Shown here in pieces: positions 6,511-27,404 of a DNA stretch of 30,131 bases. Below the pieces are notes generated by a model. It saw only the letters and a program-made list of their open reading frames with translations. It was not told where the DNA came from and did not search any database. Position numbers and translations under genes: made by a program. Numbering within the stretch: position 1 is the first letter of the stretch; each line of letters opens with the position of its first letter. Location of the stretch: the UHGV virus genome UHGV-0095463. One strand, 5' to 3'. This DNA is from a virus.

Positions 6511-7683
6511 TTACGCGCTGACCTGGCTGGAGAAATTCACCAGGTACTGATCGGTGATGCGCTGACGCAGCATCAGGTTTTCAAGTGGCGGCACTGGCGT
6601 GTAGTCGTAGTCGATGGTGAGTTTTCCGGCTTTCAGCGTGTCTTTGTCGTTCACCGACTCATCCAGCCAGCAATCACCACCAATGAGATAGCCCTGACTG
6701 ACCAGGCTGCGCATTTTGGCGCGGATACCCTCGATAATGTCGCGGGCCAGCGACGGATTCAGCGGTTTATCCACCGCCCACATGTGCGCTTCTGCCATCG
6801 TGTCCGTCAGCACCTGCGCCGTGCGGGTGTAGTTTTCGAAGGCAAAGAGCGGGTCATCACTCAGGCAGCGGGACCCCCAGAAGCGGAAACCGTCTTTACG
6901 CACAAGCGTGGTGACGTCGTTCTGGTTCAGCAGACCTGCATCGGTTGCCGGGTCCTGCAGATCCCAGAACACATCTGCAGAAATTCCGGTGACACCGTTC
7001 ACGCCCACATTGGACAGGCTTTTGTGCCATCCGGTCTGCTCGTCAATTTTGGCGCGCAGACCAAGCGCACGGGCGGTGGCATATGCCGTTGCTTCTGCAT
7101 TCAGCACCGTGTCCCAGCCAGTAAAGTCAGGCCAGATCAGCATCCCTTCGCGCTGGCTGAAGTTTTCGCGGTAAGTGATCGCCTCCTGCACTGTCTTGCA
7201 GCCATACGCTGACAGGTAAGCAAATCCACGCAGGCTTTGCGCCACGCTCAGCAACTCAGTAGCTACCGCCTTGGTGTCGTGGCCTGGCACGCCGAGAATG
7301 CGCGGTTTAACGCCGAGCTGTGACTGGGCAGATAACAGGGCTTTCATACCTGTTTTTTTACCTTCAGCAGTCACTGCTCCGATGATATTGGTCGTGGTTT
7401 CTTCTTCCGTTTCACCCTGCGGCACACGCACAACAACGGTCACGGGTTTTGCCTGGTCAGCGATGGCGTCCAGCGAACGGGCCAGCGTACCGGACTCACC
7501 CGCTTTACCGCTGGCAGTCAGCACATCAGTGATCAGCACGGGTTTATTAAGAGGAAACATTTTTGCATCGGCATCATCGCCCGTGCAGACCATACCCACG
7601 ATGGCGGTGCTCACCGTGGTAATGGATCGGGTGCCTTCGTTGACTTCAACAACGCGCACCCCGTGGTGGTAATCCTGAGCCAT
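6511..7683 (-). CDS. FI: Contractile tail sheath protein gpFI
   Basis: 390-aa ORF that is the first gene of the F-E-T-U-D block; size and order match P2 gpFI. Confidence 0.9.
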
Positions 7684-17088: not shown

Positions 17089-17739
17089 TCAGCGGCTGTC
17101 ATTGCGCAGTCTGCGCTCCAGCTGCTGTTTGTCTTTTTTCACGCCACAGCGGGGATCGAGCTGTAACGCATGGTTGAGATGATTAAGGGCAGACGCCGGA
17201 TTTCTTTCACTCAGGACAGCGCCAATCGCTTTATGCAGACGCGCCCGTGACTGGTCCGGCATATCCATACCGTCTGTCAGCTCCAGGGTCTGCAGCAACA
17301 GATCGGCATCAAAGCCGGTGGCGGCAAGCATTGCGCTCTGGGCTGCATCTGCCATTTCCTCTGCCAGCACGGTCTGCACGTTGCGGTTACCTAACGGCAT
17401 CACCCAGCCATGACGCAGGGCGTGACGCCCGATCTCCAGCGCCCCGGCATAATCTCCGGCATCAATGCGCCACAGCATCACGTACATCAGCACGTCATCC
17501 TGTTGAGCGCCTCCGGCAGCCAGGACACCCTCCGCCCAGGCGGCGTACTTCGGCAGCAGCTCCACCTTGATTTCCGCTTTTTTGACCGTGGACTGAACGC
17601 CCTTGAGACGGCGGCGGTCTTCCGCCAGTTGCAGCAGCATCAGGTCATAGCCCGACGCGTGGCGAACGCTGCCGCCCTCGCGGGCGGCCTGTTCAGCCTG
17701 AACGCGCAGGCGATGCTGCCGTGCGGGACTCAGGCTCAT
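17089..17739 (-). CDS. M: Terminase small (endonuclease) subunit gpM
   Basis: 216-aa ORF between N and L; size and order match P2 gpM. Confidence 0.85.
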   Translation of the reverse strand: MSLSPARQHRLRVQAEQAAREGGSVRHASGYDLMLLQLAEDRRRLKGVQSTVKKAEIKVELLPKYAAWAEGVLAAGGAQQDDVLMYVMLWRIDAGDYAGALEIGRHALRHGWVMPLGNRNVQTVLAEEMADAAQSAMLAATGFDADLLLQTLELTDGMDMPDQSRARLHKAIGAVLSERNPASALNHLNHALQLDPRCGVKKDKQQLERRLRNDSR

Positions 17740-19793: not shown

Positions 19794-21560
19794 ATGAACA
19801 CCACACTGACACCCGCAGATCTCGATCCCCGTCGGCAGGCCATGCTGCTGTACTTTCAGGGATACCGCGTAGCCCGCATTGCTGAAATGCTGGGCGAGAA
19901 AGTTGCAACCGTTCACAGCTGGAAGAAACGCGACAAGTGGGGTGACTATGGGCCGCTGGATCAGATGCAGCTCACCACCGCCGCACGCTACTGCCAGCTC
20001 ATTATGAAGGAGCACAAAGAAGGGAAAGATTTCAAAGAAATTGACCTGCTGGCGCGCCAGTCGGAGCGCCACGCGCGGATCGGCAAGTTTAACAATGGCG
20101 GTAACGAAGCCGACTTAAACCCTAACGTCGCCAACCGCAACAAAGGCCCACGCCGTCAGCCGGAAAAGAATGTTTTCACCGATGAGCAGATTGAGAAGCT
20201 GGAAGAAATCTTCCATTCCTCCATGTTCAACTACCAGCGCCACTGGTGGGAAGCCGGAAAAACCAACCGCATCCGCAACCTGCTGAAGTCTCGCCAGATC
20301 GGCGCAACCTTCTATTTTGCCCGTGAAGCCCTGATTGACGCCCTGCTTACCGGACGTAACCAGATTTTCCTTTCTGCCAGTAAGGCTCAGGCCCACGTCT
20401 TTAAACAATACATCATCGACTTCGCCAAAGAAGTCGAGGTGGAGCTAAAAGGCGATCCGATGGTGCTTCCTAACGGAGCCACGCTTTACTTCCTCGGCAC
20501 CAATGCCCGCACGGCCCAGAGTTACCACGGCAACCTGTATCTGGATGAATATTTCTGGATACCGAAATTTCAGGAGCTGCGCAAAGTGGCTTCCGGTATG
20601 GCTATTCACAAGAAATGGCGACAAACCTATTTTTCCACGCCATCCAGCCTGACACACAGTGCTTATCCGTTCTGGTCCGGTGCGCTGTTCAACCGTGGGC
20701 GCAACAAAGCCGATAAGGTGGACATCGACCTGTCCCACAGCAATCTGGCCCCCGGCCTGCTGTGCGCAGACGGGCAATACCGCCAGATAGTCACCGTGGA
20801 AGATGCGGTGCGCGGCGGCTGTAACCTGTTCGACCTTGACCAGTTGCGCATGGAGTACAGCCCGGACGAATACCAGAACCTGCTGATGTGCGAGTTTGTG
20901 GACGATCTCGCGTCCGTGTTTCCGCTCAGCGAGCTGCAGGCGTGCATGGTGGACAGCTGGGAAGTCTGGACCGACTTTCATGCACTGGCGCTGCGCCCGT
21001 TTGGCTGGCGCGAGGTGTGGATCGGTTATGACCCGGCAAAAGGTACGCAGAACGGCGATAGTGCCGGATGCGTGGTGGTGGCTCCGCCAGCCGTGCCGGG
21101 TGGTAAGTTCCGCATTCTTGAGCATCACCAGTGGCGCGGGATGGACTTCCGCGCCCAGGCTGACGCCATCAAAAAACTGACCGAACAGTACAACGTGACC
21201 TATATCGGCATCGACTCGACCGGCGTCGGTCACGGGGTTTACGAGAACGTGAAAGCGTTTTTTCCTGCCGTCAGGGAGTTTGTCTACAACCCCAACGTTA
21301 AAAACGCCCTGGTACTCAAGGCCTACGACATTATCAGCCACCGCCGTCTGGAGTTTGACGCCGGGCACACCGACATTGCGCAGTCATTTATGGCAATCCG
21401 TCGCGCTACCACTGCCAGTGGCAACCGCCCGACCTATGAAGCCAGCCGCAGCGAAGAAGCCAGCCATGCCGATCTGGCCTGGGCAACAATGCACGCACTG
21501 TTTAACGAACCGCTGCAGGGCGAGTCCGCCAATACCAGCAATATTGTGGAGATTTTTTGA
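19794..21560 (+). CDS. P: Terminase large (ATPase) subunit gpP
   Basis: 588-aa ORF divergent from O and followed by the portal gene, as in P2. Confidence 0.9.
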   Translation: MNTTLTPADLDPRRQAMLLYFQGYRVARIAEMLGEKVATVHSWKKRDKWGDYGPLDQMQLTTAARYCQLIMKEHKEGKDFKEIDLLARQSERHARIGKFNNGGNEADLNPNVANRNKGPRRQPEKNVFTDEQIEKLEEIFHSSMFNYQRHWWEAGKTNRIRNLLKSRQIGATFYFAREALIDALLTGRNQIFLSASKAQAHVFKQYIIDFAKEVEVELKGDPMVLPNGATLYFLGTNARTAQSYHGNLYLDEYFWIPKFQELRKVASGMAIHKKWRQTYFSTPSSLTHSAYPFWSGALFNRGRNKADKVDIDLSHSNLAPGLLCADGQYRQIVTVEDAVRGGCNLFDLDQLRMEYSPDEYQNLLMCEFVDDLASVFPLSELQACMVDSWEVWTDFHALALRPFGWREVWIGYDPAKGTQNGDSAGCVVVAPPAVPGGKFRILEHHQWRGMDFRAQADAIKKLTEQYNVTYIGIDSTGVGHGVYENVKAFFPAVREFVYNPNVKNALVLKAYDIISHRRLEFDAGHTDIAQSFMAIRRATTASGNRPTYEASRSEEASHADLAWATMHALFNEPLQGESANTSNIVEIF

Positions 21561-22597
21561 TGGGAAAGAGTAAGAAGAACCGCGCTGCGTCGACGAAACA
21601 GATCCAGCATAAAAGCCAGACTTCAGCCGAAGCATTCAGCTTCGGTGATCCCGTTCCTGTTCTGGACCGCCGCGAACTGCTGGACTATGTGGAATGCGTA
21701 CAGATGGATCGTTGGTATGAGCCGCCTGTGAGTTTCGACGGACTGGCGCGAACCTTCCGCGCCGCCGTGCATCACAGCTCACCGATTGCAGTGAAGTGCA
21801 ACATTCTGACCAGCACCTACATCCCTCACCCGCTGCTCAGCCAGCAGGCTTTTTCGCGTTTTGTGCAGGACTATCTGGTTTTTGGTAACGCCTACCTGGA
21901 GAAACGCACGAACCGCTTCGGTGAAGTTATCGCCCTTGAGCCTGCACTGGCAAAATACACCCGACGCGGGTTAGACCTGGATACCTACTGGTTTGTGCAA
22001 TACGGTATGACAACCCAGCCGTATCAGTTCACGAAAGGCAGCATTTTTCATCTGATGGAACCGGACATTAACCAGGAGATCTACGGCCTGCCCGGTTATC
22101 TTTCTGCCATTCCGTCAGCTCTGCTCAACGAGTCCGCCACGCTGTTCCGCCGCAAGTATTACATTAACGGCAGTCATGCAGGCTTCATCATGTACATGAC
22201 CGATGCTGCGCAGAACCAGGAGGATGTGAACAACCTCCGCAATGCGATGAAAAGCGCCAAAGGTCCTGGTAACTTCCGTAACCTGTTTATGTACTCGCCT
22301 AACGGTAAAAAGGACGGGCTTCAGATTATCCCGTTGTCAGAAGTGGCGGCGAAGGATGAGTTCCTGAATATCAAGAACGTGAGCCGGGACGACATGATGG
22401 CGGCGCATCGTGTGCCGCCACAAATGATGGGGATAATGCCTAATAATGTCGGGGGGTTTGGGGATGTGGAGAAGGCTAGTCGAGTGTTTGTCCGCAATGA
22501 ACTGATGCCACTGCAAAAGCGGCTGCAAGAGCTGAACAACTGGCTAGGTGAAAAAGTGATTTGCTTTGAATCTTACAACTTAGATATTTCTGAGTAA
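21557..22597 (+). CDS. Q: Portal protein gpQ
   Basis: 346-aa ORF, the last late gene before cos. The ORF-track start is a TTG at 21557; the first ATG is at 21560. Confidence 0.9.
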   Translation: MMGKSKKNRAASTKQIQHKSQTSAEAFSFGDPVPVLDRRELLDYVECVQMDRWYEPPVSFDGLARTFRAAVHHSSPIAVKCNILTSTYIPHPLLSQQAFSRFVQDYLVFGNAYLEKRTNRFGEVIALEPALAKYTRRGLDLDTYWFVQYGMTTQPYQFTKGSIFHLMEPDINQEIYGLPGYLSAIPSALLNESATLFRRKYYINGSHAGFIMYMTDAAQNQEDVNNLRNAMKSAKGPGNFRNLFMYSPNGKKDGLQIIPLSEVAAKDEFLNIKNVSRDDMMAAHRVPPQMMGIMPNNVGGFGDVEKASRVFVRNELMPLQKRLQELNNWLGEKVICFESYNLDISE

Positions 22598-22605
22598 ATT
22601 AAAGC

Positions 22606-22621
22606 GCCTGCATTTGCAGGC
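22606..22621. terminator. Rho-independent terminator after Q
   Basis: Hairpin GCCTGC-attt-GCAGGC followed by ATTCTATTATTCTTT. Confidence 0.5.
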
Positions 22622-22627
22622 ATTCTA

Positions 22628-22924
22628 TTATTCTTTAATTAGTGCCCCCCATACGGAGTCCATATCAACTTCCTCAACTACAATGCAAATGGAGCAATGA
22701 ACATGACCATCAGCAATGCGTAGGTAATTGAAAAGCCTTGTTTTCACCCGCCCATCAAATTGAGCACGCCCACCCTTATTCGTAATTGTTACGTAGTCTC
22801 CCACATTTGGAAGCATCAAAAGCGAGTTGTCTTCTGAATTACACCCTACAACCTCTCCATCATCATCAGGGCGATCCTGACCTTTGCGCATATATTGAAA
22901 ATCATAGCTATAAGTAGTTTTCAT
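22628..22924 (-). CDS. Hypothetical 98-aa protein between the portal gene and cos
   Basis: AT-rich ORF. No convincing Shine-Dalgarno upstream and no recognisable motif (translation ...GDYVTITNKGGRAQFDGRVKTRLFNYLRIADGHVHCSICIVVEEVD...). Confidence 0.4.
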   Translation of the reverse strand: MKTTYSYDFQYMRKGQDRPDDDGEVVGCNSEDNSLLMLPNVGDYVTITNKGGRAQFDGRVKTRLFNYLRIADGHVHCSICIVVEEVDMDSVWGALIKE

Positions 22925-23129
22925 AAATGTCTTACTATTCCAATTTTTAACTAACCCAGAAGTTATATCTTAGACCTAAACTGTCTCAGTCACCGTTAAC
23001 TTCATCACAACGATTTAACACATCCTGCATGCCTATCTAACGTGAGAGCCGTTTATACCTACAAAACTAACTACGTTCCTGAGCCAGTAAATTGCGGTGG
23101 ATTTTGACCATTTTACCCCAGAGTGCGCG

Positions 23130-23148
23130 CTCGTATCCCCGCCACGCC
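23130..23148. other. cos-like site (cohesive-end region)
   Basis: Minus strand reads GGCGTGGCGGGGATACGAG. The first 13 nt match the 19-nt cohesive end I recall for phage 186 (GGCGTGGCGGGGAAAGCAT; P2 is GGCGAGGCGGGGAAAGCAC). Location after Q is as expected. Confidence 0.45.
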
Positions 23149-23196
23149 TGCCCGCTTTATGTAGTGGTTTTCATGCGCCTGCATGACATAAGCAAA

Positions 23197-23218
23197 GGCC
23201 CGCCATTCCTAGCGGGCC
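23197..23218 (-). terminator. Putative rho-independent terminator downstream of the 290-aa cargo gene
   Basis: Hairpin GGCCCGC-cattccta-GCGGGCC. On the minus strand it is followed by TTTGCTTAT. Confidence 0.45.
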
Positions 23219-23240
23219 TCAGCTAAAACGATCCTCAAAC

Positions 23241-23273
23241 GATCATGCGGATTCATGCGGCATAGTCATGCAC
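23241..23273. repeat. Three tandem 10-bp-periodic repeats (ATCATGCGG / ATTCATGCGG / AGTCATGCAC) next to cos
   Basis: Direct repeats of core TCATGC(G/A) at one-helical-turn spacing, with a fourth copy at about 23171-23177. Candidate terminase (cosB-like) or other protein-binding array. Confidence 0.4.
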
Positions 23274-23320
23274 TTGTGTGGTTACGAAGGAATATAGTTG
23301 CGAAAATCGATTAAAATGTC

Positions 23321-24193
23321 TTAAGCTCTCTTAATCAACCCCTTATGCGTTGCTTTGGTAAGATAAGCTAATTCTTTAGGCCCCTTATCTCTAAAGCCCA
23401 CCCATTCTGGTTGGAATTTTATAAAACTTGGAATTGCGGTTGCCAAGGCTGTAACCATACCGGGAATAATACCGCCTGAATAACCAGCAATAGCAGCATG
23501 GTACAACGGTTTTAAAAATTCCATAACCTGCCCACCATCTACTTCTGGATTGGCTTTGACTCCCATTCTGATAGGATTTCTCCATTTCCCTTCGATAGCT
23601 TTATCAAGATTAACTACAGCCTCTTGTAATAAAGAAAAATTTTTAGCCCTCGTTAGATTAGGGTCTCTAGAATAAAGGACTTCAGTATACAGTTTTTCTA
23701 AGTACTCATGTAACGCATTAAGATCATCCTGACAATCATCTTTAAAACGTAATATATCTTCTATATGAGCATCTTTATCAGGAATTCTCAGAACATTAAA
23801 CAACTCCAATCTCAACTGAAGGGCCGTTTTCTGTGCTTTATCATATATTAAATTTTCCCCTGTTTGATGAAAGTGCCAATAAGTAGCAGGCTCGTTCTTC
23901 CTGAATTCATCCAATGTCTGCAACTGAAATTCCGTATATAAAAATGGAAAGTCTTGGATATTCAGCATCCCATCATGTTTCATAATAGGTCTACGTAATA
24001 CCCCATTATCTAATAATTCTTTTTCTTTAGGCACAATCGAGTGAATATTTTCACTATCTAGAATAACCACATCATCCCAGTAAAAGCAGAAATAATTAAT
24101 ATCCTGCTCAGTTAAACCTGCCCCAAGATAGACCGTACTATTATTTCTATGAAAACTCATTTCATTAGGATTAGCTACAATACCACGTTTCAT
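23321..24193 (-). CDS. Unrecognised AT-rich cargo protein (290 aa), a candidate anti-phage / abortive-infection gene
   Basis: ATG at 24193 with AAGGAG 5 nt upstream (the ORF-track start at 24217 has no ribosome-binding site). Strongly AT-rich relative to the flanking phage genes, with AT-rich intergenic regions on both sides and a terminator hairpin downstream. C-terminal Gly/Ala-rich hydrophobic segment LYHAAIAGYSGGIIPGMVTALATAIPSFI. Sits between the tum-like module and cos, the position of the P2 old/tin cargo locus. Confidence 0.7.
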   Translation of the reverse strand: MKRGIVANPNEMSFHRNNSTVYLGAGLTEQDINYFCFYWDDVVILDSENIHSIVPKEKELLDNGVLRRPIMKHDGMLNIQDFPFLYTEFQLQTLDEFRKNEPATYWHFHQTGENLIYDKAQKTALQLRLELFNVLRIPDKDAHIEDILRFKDDCQDDLNALHEYLEKLYTEVLYSRDPNLTRAKNFSLLQEAVVNLDKAIEGKWRNPIRMGVKANPEVDGGQVMEFLKPLYHAAIAGYSGGIIPGMVTALATAIPSFIKFQPEWVGFRDKGPKELAYLTKATHKGLIKRA

Positions 24194-24404
24194 TCTTGCT
24201 CCTTGATAAGCATACACATTTTAAGAATGACATATATTCTAATAATTTCAATACATTATGAGTTATAACTAAAAGTGCAGCATAGGTCTCGCCCTGATAG
24301 ATAATCAAGTGATTACTGTCTTTTTACTTATGGTTAACGCCTCTCAAGGCTCGCGGTTCAACCTTGCTGACGCCAGAAGCAGGTTCAGACGCCAGCAACG
24401 TTTC

Positions 24405-24638
24405 TTAATGCAGCCAGCTGTCGTCTTCCCACACCTTCTGCATAATTTTCATCACTTGTTTTCTTTCTTCGTCCAGTTGCAATCCGGTAAGTTCCACACC
24501 GTTAGAGCTACCTTTGCGGATACGAATTACCGTTTTGGGATACAGGGGGCGCAGATTGCGGTAAAGCTCGGATTCAAGGGCGTCCAGTGTAGACTGGCTA
24601 ATCTTCTGCTCTTTATCGATCATTATTTCAATGCGCAT
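24405..24638 (-). CDS. DinI-like protein (77 aa)
   Basis: From the internal start MRIEIMIDKEQ... the protein ends ...QKVWEDDSWLH, resembling E. coli DinI (MRIEVTIAK...ETWESADDWF, about 80 aa). GAGGTGA Shine-Dalgarno upstream of ATG 24638. Confidence 0.75.
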   Translation of the reverse strand: MRIEIMIDKEQKISQSTLDALESELYRNLRPLYPKTVIRIRKGSSNGVELTGLQLDEERKQVMKIMQKVWEDDSWLH

Positions 24639-24648
24639 AAAAGTCACC

Positions 24649-24837
24649 TCAGCTGATGACATCCATTGAGCGGTTGTATTCGTGGGTTCTGATTTTTGCC
24701 ATGAGTTCATCTGTCAGTTCAGAAACCCACTGCAGAGCCAGCCCCTTCTCTTCATCACTACACTCACTAGCCGCTACAAGCTTAAGAAAAAAATCAATGC
24801 GCTGGAGCTTCAAAGACTCCAAAAAATAGTCCTGCAT
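24649..24837 (-). CDS. Small hypothetical protein (62 aa), possibly the N-terminal module of a Tum-like antirepressor
   Basis: Strong ribosome-binding site (AGGAGG, 4 nt spacer). Lies immediately downstream of a LexA box and immediately upstream of the DinI-like ORF in a different frame. Confidence 0.55.
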   Translation of the reverse strand: MQDYFLESLKLQRIDFFLKLVAASECSDEEKGLALQWVSELTDELMAKIRTHEYNRSMDVIS

Positions 24838-24989: not shown

Positions 24990-27404
24990 TTAATACAGGT
25001 TCCGCCACTTATCATCTTCCTTCAGACGCTGGTTCCGATAGAAGATACGCAGGCCAGCTCCTGACGGAATACTGCCGCCGCGAAGGAGCAAATCGACTTC
25101 TTTCTCGCTGCCATCAAATCCCCTGGACTTCAGTTCATAGACGAGCTGCTGTCGCTGATGGTCTGTAATTCGCTGTTTGTAGTCTTTACGCCGTTTCGGT
25201 TTCACCTGGCGTAACCTTGCAGCCAGTTCCCGGCGCTCTTTTTTGCTCATACTGTGCAGGTAATCGTGCAACTCCTTGTCATTCATACGGGTAATATCCG
25301 TTCTGGAGTCCCCATCAGCTGATTTGTCTTTCCCTTGTTGGTTCAAATTTTCAGCAAGGGGACAGTTATTGCCACGAGTCCAAGGGGCGCAAGCGCCCTG
25401 GTCGGCTGCCGCCTCCTGAACGTCAACGGCTTTACGAACCATTTTCCACTTCACTGCATGAGTGCAGATCTTGCCCTCTGCAATGGGTGACCAGATGCCA
25501 TAAATACGAATGCCGTGATCGCCATAGGCGGTCGGCTCTTCGTTGATTTCATAAGCGGTTCTGATGAGGTGATATTTACGGGGAACCAGTACGCCGCCCT
25601 GCTTCATGATGTAGGTGGCAAAACAACCAGCATCAGCAGCAGCCAGAATGGCATCAAGACGCGGGTTATCCAGTACCGGCGCACCTGCATTTTTGTCCCC
25701 CTGTTGCCTTGCCGCCTGACCAGCCAACAATCGCAGTTCACGGTAAGCCTGACGCCCCGGAATGCCAAAGAAGCGGAATTGCTGAACACGATGCAAAGAC
25801 GCCCAGGCATTCACGTATTCAGCGTTATCACGCAGAGATTTACCCGTTTCCTTGCTGATCTCGCCAGCCAGACCACGACCGTCAATGTTCTTACTGATAT
25901 ATTTCGCGATGTAGCTTGTCGGCGTTCCTTTGCGCGGGTTAATCAACTCAGACTTAAAGCGCGGCCCAGTGTTATTGCCCAGCTCCTCGCGGTCTTCACG
26001 GATGGCAAACTTACGCAGTAATGCAGTGATGGCACGGCGGTCTTTTTTGCGCATGAAACACAACAGGTGCCAGTGAACTGTGCCATCATGATGCGGCTCA
26101 GCCACCCGCACGCCATACCAGCGCAACCCGGCTTTGTGCATCGCCTTACGAAATGCAGCAAACATGCCGACCAGATAATCGCTGCTTTGTCTTACCGTCG
26201 CGTTTGTCCAGGTCGGGTTTGGTCTGCCGTTATTTAGCGTGGAATGGAAACGCGACGGACAGGTGATAGTGTAGAAAACGGCGCAGTCACCGCGCATTTC
26301 CGCGATAAGCTCCAGACCTTTAACACAGGCCATCATCTCATTGCGGCGATGCGCAGGGTTGCTGCTGCTGGCGTTTACCACATCCTCCATGTCCAGCGTG
26401 TCGCCGTCTTCGTTCACCAGTTCATGAGAACGGAAAAACTCCAGCGACTTACGGCGCTGCTCACGTTTATGCATCACGGCTTCATAGCTGACATAAGGAG
26501 ATGCTTTTTTGCTGACCAGGCAAACAGCGCGCAACTGCTCTTCCCGCCATTCGCAACGCATCTTCCATAATTTCCGATACCACCAGTCGGCGCACAACAT
26601 ACGCGCCAGCGAACCCGGAATGAGTTCATAGGGCACGGGTTTACGGCGGTTTCTTTTCCGACGGAGTTGCTCAAACGCAGGTGGGATGACATCCAGACGC
26701 AGGGTTTCCGCTGCCACCTTTTCCCATGTCTTGCGGATTTCTTCTGGCTTAACGTCATCGGTGGCATACAAATCACCACAAGCTGCATCAAGGCACATAC
26801 TCATATGCGCAGCTACCAGGGTGGACAGGCGTTTCACCTGATCCTGACTCATTTCAGGCAGGATCAGCAGGCCGTCCAGCCCTTCATGGCTTGCCATAAA
26901 GCGAAAAGATGCAGATAGCTGACTGTCGCGTACATGCTCCAGTCGTTCCAGACATGGCTTAATCGTCTCACGTAAATAGCGGGAATAAGCCTTTGGCCTG
27001 CCCAGGCTGCTGAAGTATTCAATACGTTGCATCAGCGGCTTGCTGATATGGGAAGGCTGGGCGTTGACGTCCGCCAGAATGACCATGTCTGAATTAAAAC
27101 GCTGCTGCTCATGCGCCAGCTTTGCCCGGCTAATGAGCTTATCCTGCTCCATTTCGCGCTGGACAGGATCACGTGATTCATTAAAGAAATAACGCTCCCA
27201 GACCTGATCACTCAGTGCCTCGCGGCGCAACTGTTCCTGCTCGTTATCGGCAGCGTACAGAGTGATCAGGTTTGAAAGCGTAGAAACCGGCGCAACTTCC
27301 GCCGGGTCCAGATAAGGGTTAATGGCCTTTTTCGGGCTGTTCCATGAGAATGCTGCGGCAGCCTCGTTAAAGCCGCAGCAGTTGTTCATATCGGCATGAG
27401 TCAT
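24990..27404 (-). CDS. A: Rolling-circle replication initiator protein A
   Basis: 804-aa ORF containing ...[18 protein letters not shown]..., the tandem-tyrosine active-site motif of Rep endonucleases. Position and size match the P2/186 A gene. Confidence 0.9.

Follow-up and report, generated by a model that had tools for sequence, protein, structure and literature searches.

In phage lambda, cosB is composed of R3, I1, R2 and R1, gpNu1 binding sites that are combined with an IHF bend. Phage P1 packages by a headful mechanism, and its pac site carries two clusters of TGATCA/G boxes with a spacer between them and is cleaved under the control of Dam methylation. For P2, the deletion study of Ziermann and Calendar from 1990 reportedly found that more than the 55-bp core was needed, mostly to the right of the ends. 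A 55-bp cos core common to P2 and P4 is the usual description of this site (PMC3931495; PMC5694545; PMC2231350; PMC9594776) and is attributed to Ziermann and Calendar 1990 (as cited in PMC3931495; PMC5694545; PMC9594776). Cosmids with longer flanks on a short P2/P4 cos fragment were transduced more than 1000-fold better (PMC9594776). Monomeric circles are the packaging substrate of P2-type phages (PMC2231350), in contrast to lambda. P4-like satellites depend on the terminase of their helper, with which they share only the cos region (PMC9122126). A mention of cosB is found in PMC4669245. Our literature search for cosB or for repeats in P2-like phages returned nothing specific, and the supplement of PMC9594776 contains no cos sequences. 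The distal triplet of boxes and the fixed 72-bp spacing reported below are not described in the accessible literature (PMC3931495; PMC5694545; PMC2231350; PMC9594776).

The DNA studied here is a window of 30,131 nucleotides (UHGV virus genome UHGV-0095463), which is the whole stretch that was analysed. Pfam assignments and gene order identify it as a P2/186-like prophage whose orientation here is opposite to that of the P2 map, with the tail and head genes on the minus strand. With a probability of about 0.8, the segment between the portal gene and the cargo gene (Table 1) can be read as a complete cos site of the P2/186 type, the TCATGC boxes of which would be its accessory recognition elements. 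As the best reading of the sequence comparisons, these boxes would serve as recognition sites for terminase and would be cosB-like in role. The site lies shortly beyond gene Q, close to genes P and M, and is bordered on its other side by the variable region and gpA. This is the order of P2, and the flanking genes gpM, gpP, gpQ and gpA thus count towards the cos reading.

The 19-mer at the cut site reads CTCGTATCCCCGCCACGCC on the plus strand and, as the reverse complement, GGCGTGGCGGGGATACGAG on the minus strand. It matches the G+C-rich, 19-nt cohesive-end form of P2-type phages, GGCGNGGCGGGG(N7), of which the P2 cosR sequence is GGCGAGGCGGGGAAAGCAC. In a BLAST comparison the deposited right end of Salmonella phage SEN8 aligned to position 23149, the base that adjoins the 19-mer and that is counted as +1 throughout. 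BLAST against phage records revealed a conserved block shared with 186-like phages of Salmonella, Klebsiella, Yersinia and Escherichia at 83-95% identity. This block covers the entire module, running from immediately left of the 19-mer through the third box, with limits of 23122-23271 in some records. P2-type phages matched 23134-23187 only, a segment that includes the proximal dyad. In the core of approximately 55 bp that is common with P2 and P4, the stretch of high information content began about 7 bp left of the 19-mer and extended to +36, and an alignment with P2, P4, 186 and PSP3 showed the same core to be conserved. The columns of the short inverted repeat and T-run inside this core were conserved family-wide with the consensus GCCCGCTT..GGGxCGGTTTT.

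Table 1. Features of the cos region and its gene context in the window, and box positions in related phages. Positions with a plus sign count from the first base past the 19-mer (+1 = window position 23149).
Feature	Position in window	Strand	Remarks
Whole conserved cos module (core, spacer and distal boxes)	23125-23274	.	limits from BLAST spans and E. coli similarity breaks
cosN, 19-nt cohesive-end sequence	23130-23148	-	fits the P2 cosR 19-mer pattern
Short inverted repeat followed by T-run, inside the core	23152-23170	+	terminator-like on the + strand in the terminator scan
Proximal dyad TCATGC-gcct-GCATGA	23171-23186	.	ATGCR at +25, inverse at +32
GC hairpin in the spacer	23196-23219	-	stem 23196-23203 / 23212-23219, 8 bp; 8-nt loop
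Two 11-bp direct repeats CTMAAACGATC	23223-23244 (starts 23223, 23234)	+	each with GATC
Distal array TCATGCG, TCATGCG, TCATGCA	23243-23272	+	ATGCR at +97, +107, +120
gpM-like small terminase subunit	17089-17739	-	Pfam Phage_term_smal, E = 1.5e-40
gpP-like large terminase subunit	19794-21560	+	Pfam Terminase_6N and Terminase_6C
Extra N-terminal HTH domain of gpP	aa 11-68 of gpP		Pfam Terminase_5; weak Sigma70_r4_2 and HTH_23 matches in the same stretch
Portal gpQ	21557-22597	+	Pfam
Cargo gene, cos-proximal variable region, outside cos	23321-24217	-	Pfam DUF6236, E = 3.9e-21
DinI/Tum-like gene, upstream of the cargo gene	24405-24710	-	
Replication protein gpA	24990-27404	-	Pfam
Boxes in this window			ATGCR +25; +97, +107, +120
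Boxes in P2			ATGCR +25; +97, +107, +119
Boxes in 186			ATGCR +25; +97, +107, +120
Boxes in P4			ATGCR +25; +97, +107, +120
Boxes in PSP3			ATGCR +25; +97, +107, +116
Boxes in Erwinia ENT90			ATGCR +25; +98, +108, +118/121
Boxes in Pseudomonas phiCTX			CTGCR +25, +34, +80, +96, +106

All boxes are located to the right of the 19-mer, on the right-end side of the genome, and none to its left. TCATGC occurs on the plus strand at 23171, 23243, 23253 and 23266, and an inverted copy at 23181-23186. The first and the inverted copy constitute the dyad, which sits 22-38 bp from the cut and inside the part common to P2 and P4. The remaining three form a head-to-tail triplet that starts 72 bp beyond the dyad box, with spacings of 10 and 13 bp, and the cores of these distal boxes are the best-conserved columns in the window's own clade. 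The 19-mer, the GC hairpin and the three tandem repeats of the original prediction were all recovered at their predicted positions. It had also described a further copy of the repeat across the hairpin; this copy is present, but it is half of a dyad whose inverted partner had been overlooked. The spacing of one helical turn ascribed to the tandem repeats holds for the first gap and is only approximate for the second.

A search of viral contigs with a cos-core pattern yielded 120 loci, 98 of them true cos regions with 93 distinct right flanks; the flank counts that follow are based on n = 94, including one locus (L093) that proved to be a false positive. ATGCR was present at +21-25 in 91/94 right flanks, at +96-100 in 86/94, at +106-110 in 80/94 and at +116-120 in 85/94, and the inverted copy (YGCAT) at +31-35 in 64/94. 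Between +36 and +90, ATGCR was nearly absent from these flanks. Grouping by similarity of the 52-bp spacer resulted in 32 lineages with mutually unrelated spacers, 30 of which had ATGCR at +24 to +26, 27 at +96 to +98, 24 at +106 to +108 and 21 at +116 to +121. The background rate of ATGCR was 0.0018 per position; as the 32 lineages share ancestry, binomial P values derived from these counts are overstated. Relative to the window, the portal and large terminase proteins of the lineages were 57-84% identical and gpM 45-49%.

The information content dropped to about zero in the spacer and went up again at the boxes. From the proximal to the first distal box the distance was 72 bp in 73 of the 93 sequences, and the distal spacing was mostly 10 bp, then 10 or 13 bp. 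The spacer of about 60 bp between dyad and triplet tolerates any sequence at a nearly constant length. A consensus of approximately aaTTcATGCA described the boxes, the flavour of which varied by clade (ATGCA, TCATGCR, CTGCR in phiCTX and GATCC in LPM4). Aeromonas phage LPM4 (L127, 430-560) retained the cos core and the ATGCA box at +25. Its distal ATGCR copies were replaced by GATCCTTT repeats at about +92, +104, +122 and +135, so the distal motif is not universal. LPM4 may represent a switch of the recognition motif; as a single case, it would be consistent with a specificity element and a reader that evolve together.

The interpretation of the repeats as part of a packaging site was already contained in the original prediction. 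A comparison with the packaging regions of P2 and 186 showed that the boxes of both phages are laid out alike and equally far from the cut site, and the layout recurred in PSP3, ENT90, phiCTX, P4 and two further P4-like satellite lineages, which supports this interpretation well. The cos sites of the 186 and P4 types possess about 35 extra conserved bases past the third box, from +125 to +165 (GGCT, an A/T run and AAAACGGG..TTCG.GG), that are absent from the window's clade.

In one satellite group (L008) the boxes were accompanied by an adjacent Psu gene. Another (L123/L089) encodes, according to Pfam, an integrase, a SIR2/HerA hotspot, Ogr/Delta, Psu and a Sid-like protein, and combines a window-type 19-mer and window-type boxes, TCATGCGATTTCATGCAGTATAGACATGCAC, with an unrelated spacer. 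These boxes suggest that satellite L123 would exploit helpers of the 186/window type rather than P2. The SIR2 and HerA pair of L123 (1-8092) is situated in the hotspot left of cos. Erosion of the site was observed in a single prophage remnant (L006, cos at about 9358), in which the portal gene is reduced to its last 114 aa (7202-7543) and gpP and gpA are absent. The remnant kept the 19-mer; the distal boxes, the dyad partner and the hairpin were eroded.

The 56-nt spacer of the window folds at -21.2 kcal/mol. Stems of differing sequence occupy the place of its GC hairpin in 186-, P4- and window-type loci. In P2 and many P2-like loci no hairpin was found there, and a role of the hairpin as a core part of cos was rejected for this reason. 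In most clade members the stem is preceded by AAAA, which corresponds to TTTT after the stem on the minus strand; in the window only TTT follows on that strand, and the terminator scan did not list the hairpin. Past the cargo gene there is no further terminator, and the hairpin probably ends transcription of the minus-strand cargo/SOS operon. This assignment is tentative in view of only three T; the hairpin would take the role of the annotated 186 terminator t95b, which lies further out and outside the array at +162 to +189. The GATC motifs of the two 11-bp direct repeats, at +82 and +93, were common among the 93 sequences and corresponded to about 2/32 lineages. Being confined to the window's clade, the GATC pair was rejected as a feature of the family. 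A pair of Dam GATC sites before the boxes recalls Dam-controlled pac sites. An Rfam search of 22600-23400 gave zero matches and no sign of a structured RNA.

Matches to the region were obtained in 1249 of 5426 complete E. coli genomes. In prophages that share the cargo gene, the similarity ran rightwards from 23093-23125, and in prophages that share the left side it stopped at 23272-23275, which is 0-3 bp past the third box and directly precedes the exchangeable cargo region. The left break was found at or just left of the 19-mer, whichever cargo followed. E. coli LR-50 agrees with the window on the left side and through the cos module, diverges 3 bp past the third box and carries a different cargo, a P-loop NTPase. 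The boxes adjoin old in P2, orf97 and its terminator in 186, psu in P4, the P-loop NTPase in LR-50 and DUF6236 in the window.

The neighbourhood of the site contains further variable elements. In some E. coli prophages the side between portal gene and cos is shared and the cargo side is not. A 98-aa ORF (22628-22924, minus strand) without Pfam or PADLOC match occupies a second variable region, on the portal side of cos, and a two-way terminator-like hairpin follows the portal gene at 22605-22622. The DinI/Tum-like gene upstream of the DUF6236 gene is arranged as in the SOS operon of phage 186 (p95-tum-orf97), with the DUF6236 gene in the place of orf97. Many E. coli isolates, frequently of poultry origin, carry copies of the DUF6236 gene with more than 99% identity at this position. 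PADLOC returned zero matches for the cargo gene and the small neighbouring ORFs. Given its location in the hotspot, the DUF6236 cargo may be a candidate for an uncharacterised anti-phage gene.

The sharp edge past the third box could also indicate that cargo cassettes are swapped by site-specific recombination with crossover in the boxes, particularly as this region is known as a hotspot for gene exchange (PMC9122126). A sharp junction is, however, expected wherever selection on a functional site stops. A matching box set is absent at the other end of the cargo region, and in P4-like satellites cos separates the variable hotspot from the boxes, which renders such a crossover site very unlikely. 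The original prediction had considered an operator for the cargo gene or for SOS-module read-through to be equally possible, a view suggested by the location of the array between cos and the cargo gene. Additional support might be seen in P2, in which the third box (33452-33461 of record L001) overlaps the -35 element TTGAAT of the old promoter, as judged from the annotated starts at 33424 and 33426. This view did not hold for the window. The cargo gene and the tum/DinI-like gene are both on the minus strand and read toward cos, and the array is at least 49 bp downstream of the cargo stop codon. Since the cargo ORF ends before it, the array is 3' of the cargo gene and is not its operator. Moreover, the boxes remain constant beside unrelated genes, and the promoter scan found no promoter-like site near the array. 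Transcriptional control of the cargo gene or of the SOS (tum-like) operon is thus extremely unlikely, and the overlap in P2 is a local coincidence. In P2, a putative occupancy by terminase and the transcription of old could interfere with each other.

The five TCATGC copies within 101 bp form the densest hexamer cluster of the window (Poisson P = 1e-8 for that hexamer), yet 29 of 100 Markov-simulated windows held some hexamer at five or more copies in 101 bp, so that the window alone cannot exclude chance. Chance is excluded by the family-wide conservation and not by within-window statistics: the positions were kept in 32 lineages with unrelated intervening and following DNA, and the boxes were lost in the decayed remnant. 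The probability that the repeats are a chance cluster or a functionless neutral relic is therefore virtually negligible. An unlikely explanation is that a factor other than terminase, either a nucleoid protein of the host or a further phage protein, binds the boxes and shapes or protects the cos DNA, so that packaging would depend on the boxes only indirectly. The fixed spacing suits any architectural complex, neither terminase subunit could be assigned as the reader, and the phiCTX record has annotated IHF sites as well as R repeats around cos. On the other hand, the box sequence drifts with the phage lineage, as is predicted for a phage-encoded reader and not for a conserved host protein, and satellites copy the flavour of a particular helper clade. 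The IHF consensus WATCAANNNNTTR was absent from 23149-23245, and the nearest match (23333-23345) is inside the cargo gene. The spacer thus offers no indication of an IHF bend as in lambda, and the analogy to cosB is one of role and not of detail.

If the boxes are recognition sites of terminase, as we prefer to read them, the enzyme (gpM and gpP) would recognise ATGCR, with the dyad accommodating a symmetric pair of DNA-binding domains and the triplet an oligomer through three neighbouring subunits. From the fixed length and free sequence of the spacer we infer that it would form a loop or a wrap in which dyad and triplet are contacted simultaneously, and the gpP nuclease would thereby be placed on the 19-mer. 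In the window's clade the spacer would also house the terminator of the SOS/cargo operon. Either subunit is a candidate reader of the boxes, gpM as a member of the small-terminase family and gpP through its N-terminal HTH. Such an extra N-terminal HTH is unusual in a large subunit. For gpM no PDB homologue was found, and a single-sequence AlphaFold model was weak (pLDDT 68.6), with only generic helical, TPR-like Foldseek matches at E > 0.1, and yielded no assignment of a DNA-binding domain in gpM.

More tentatively, the dyad and the distal triplet at a distance of 72 bp may constitute a family-wide landing pad for terminase that extends beyond the '55-bp cos' and is copied box for box by satellites, a proposal which we consider possible rather than probable. 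In that case, the constant spacer would reflect DNA looped or wrapped once round a terminase oligomer before cutting, and the box flavour would help to set which helper packages which satellite. The landing pad would also account for short cos fragments being poor P2/P4 cosmids. The distal boxes would be stimulatory at most if the minimal functional cos fragment ends before +97.

For the window, the location of cos, the affiliation of the repeats with cos and the start of the exchangeable cargo region are settled. The comparisons suggest a working cos of about 150 bp, and not of 55 bp, with a fixed internal geometry in P2-type phages and P4-type satellites. This is of use for the design of P2/P4 cosmids and transducing particles, for bounding defence hotspots beside cos and for predicting the packaging of satellites by helpers. 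The 150-bp module further provides a defined DNA for structural studies of this terminase type, which lacks a solved small subunit.

The site shares with the cos of P2, 186 and P4 the 19-nt end pattern, the core with its box at +25, the place between gene Q and the variable region, and the distal boxes at +97, +107 and about +120. It differs in the TCATGCR boxes of the window's clade, the probable terminator hairpin in the spacer and the two GATC-bearing 11-bp repeats. The cos of phiCTX (NC_003278), from the same virus family, has the same box geometry, and its depositors annotated a 'region3 containing R4, R5, R6 repeats'; it is distinguished by cohesive ends of 21 nt, the CTGCR flavour and annotated IHF sites further out.

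The resemblance to lambda cosB consists of short boxes on one side of the nick, a cut-proximal box that is inverted relative to the outer ones, a spacer between the groups and a role in terminase recognition, which is inferred for the window. Sequences and proteins are unrelated, the boxes of the window measure 5-7 bp instead of 16 bp, its spacer lacks the IHF consensus, and the large subunit gpP has an HTH domain of its own. P1 pac likewise has two clusters of short boxes and a spacer of fixed size, and in the window's clade GATC occurs in the first distal box and in the preceding repeat; here, too, the proteins are unrelated, and the GATC pair is clade-specific. In HK97, a defined site adjoining the cut is read by the small terminase, but this is a single site, read as the DNA emerges from the central tunnel of the ring, and a phased repeat array is missing (PMC11331095). 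Compared with these systems, the array of the window is a standard feature of a well-known type of site, an ordinary packaging site and not a cargo switch. What may be under-described is its geometry, which is fixed throughout the family, and the copying of the distal boxes by satellites.
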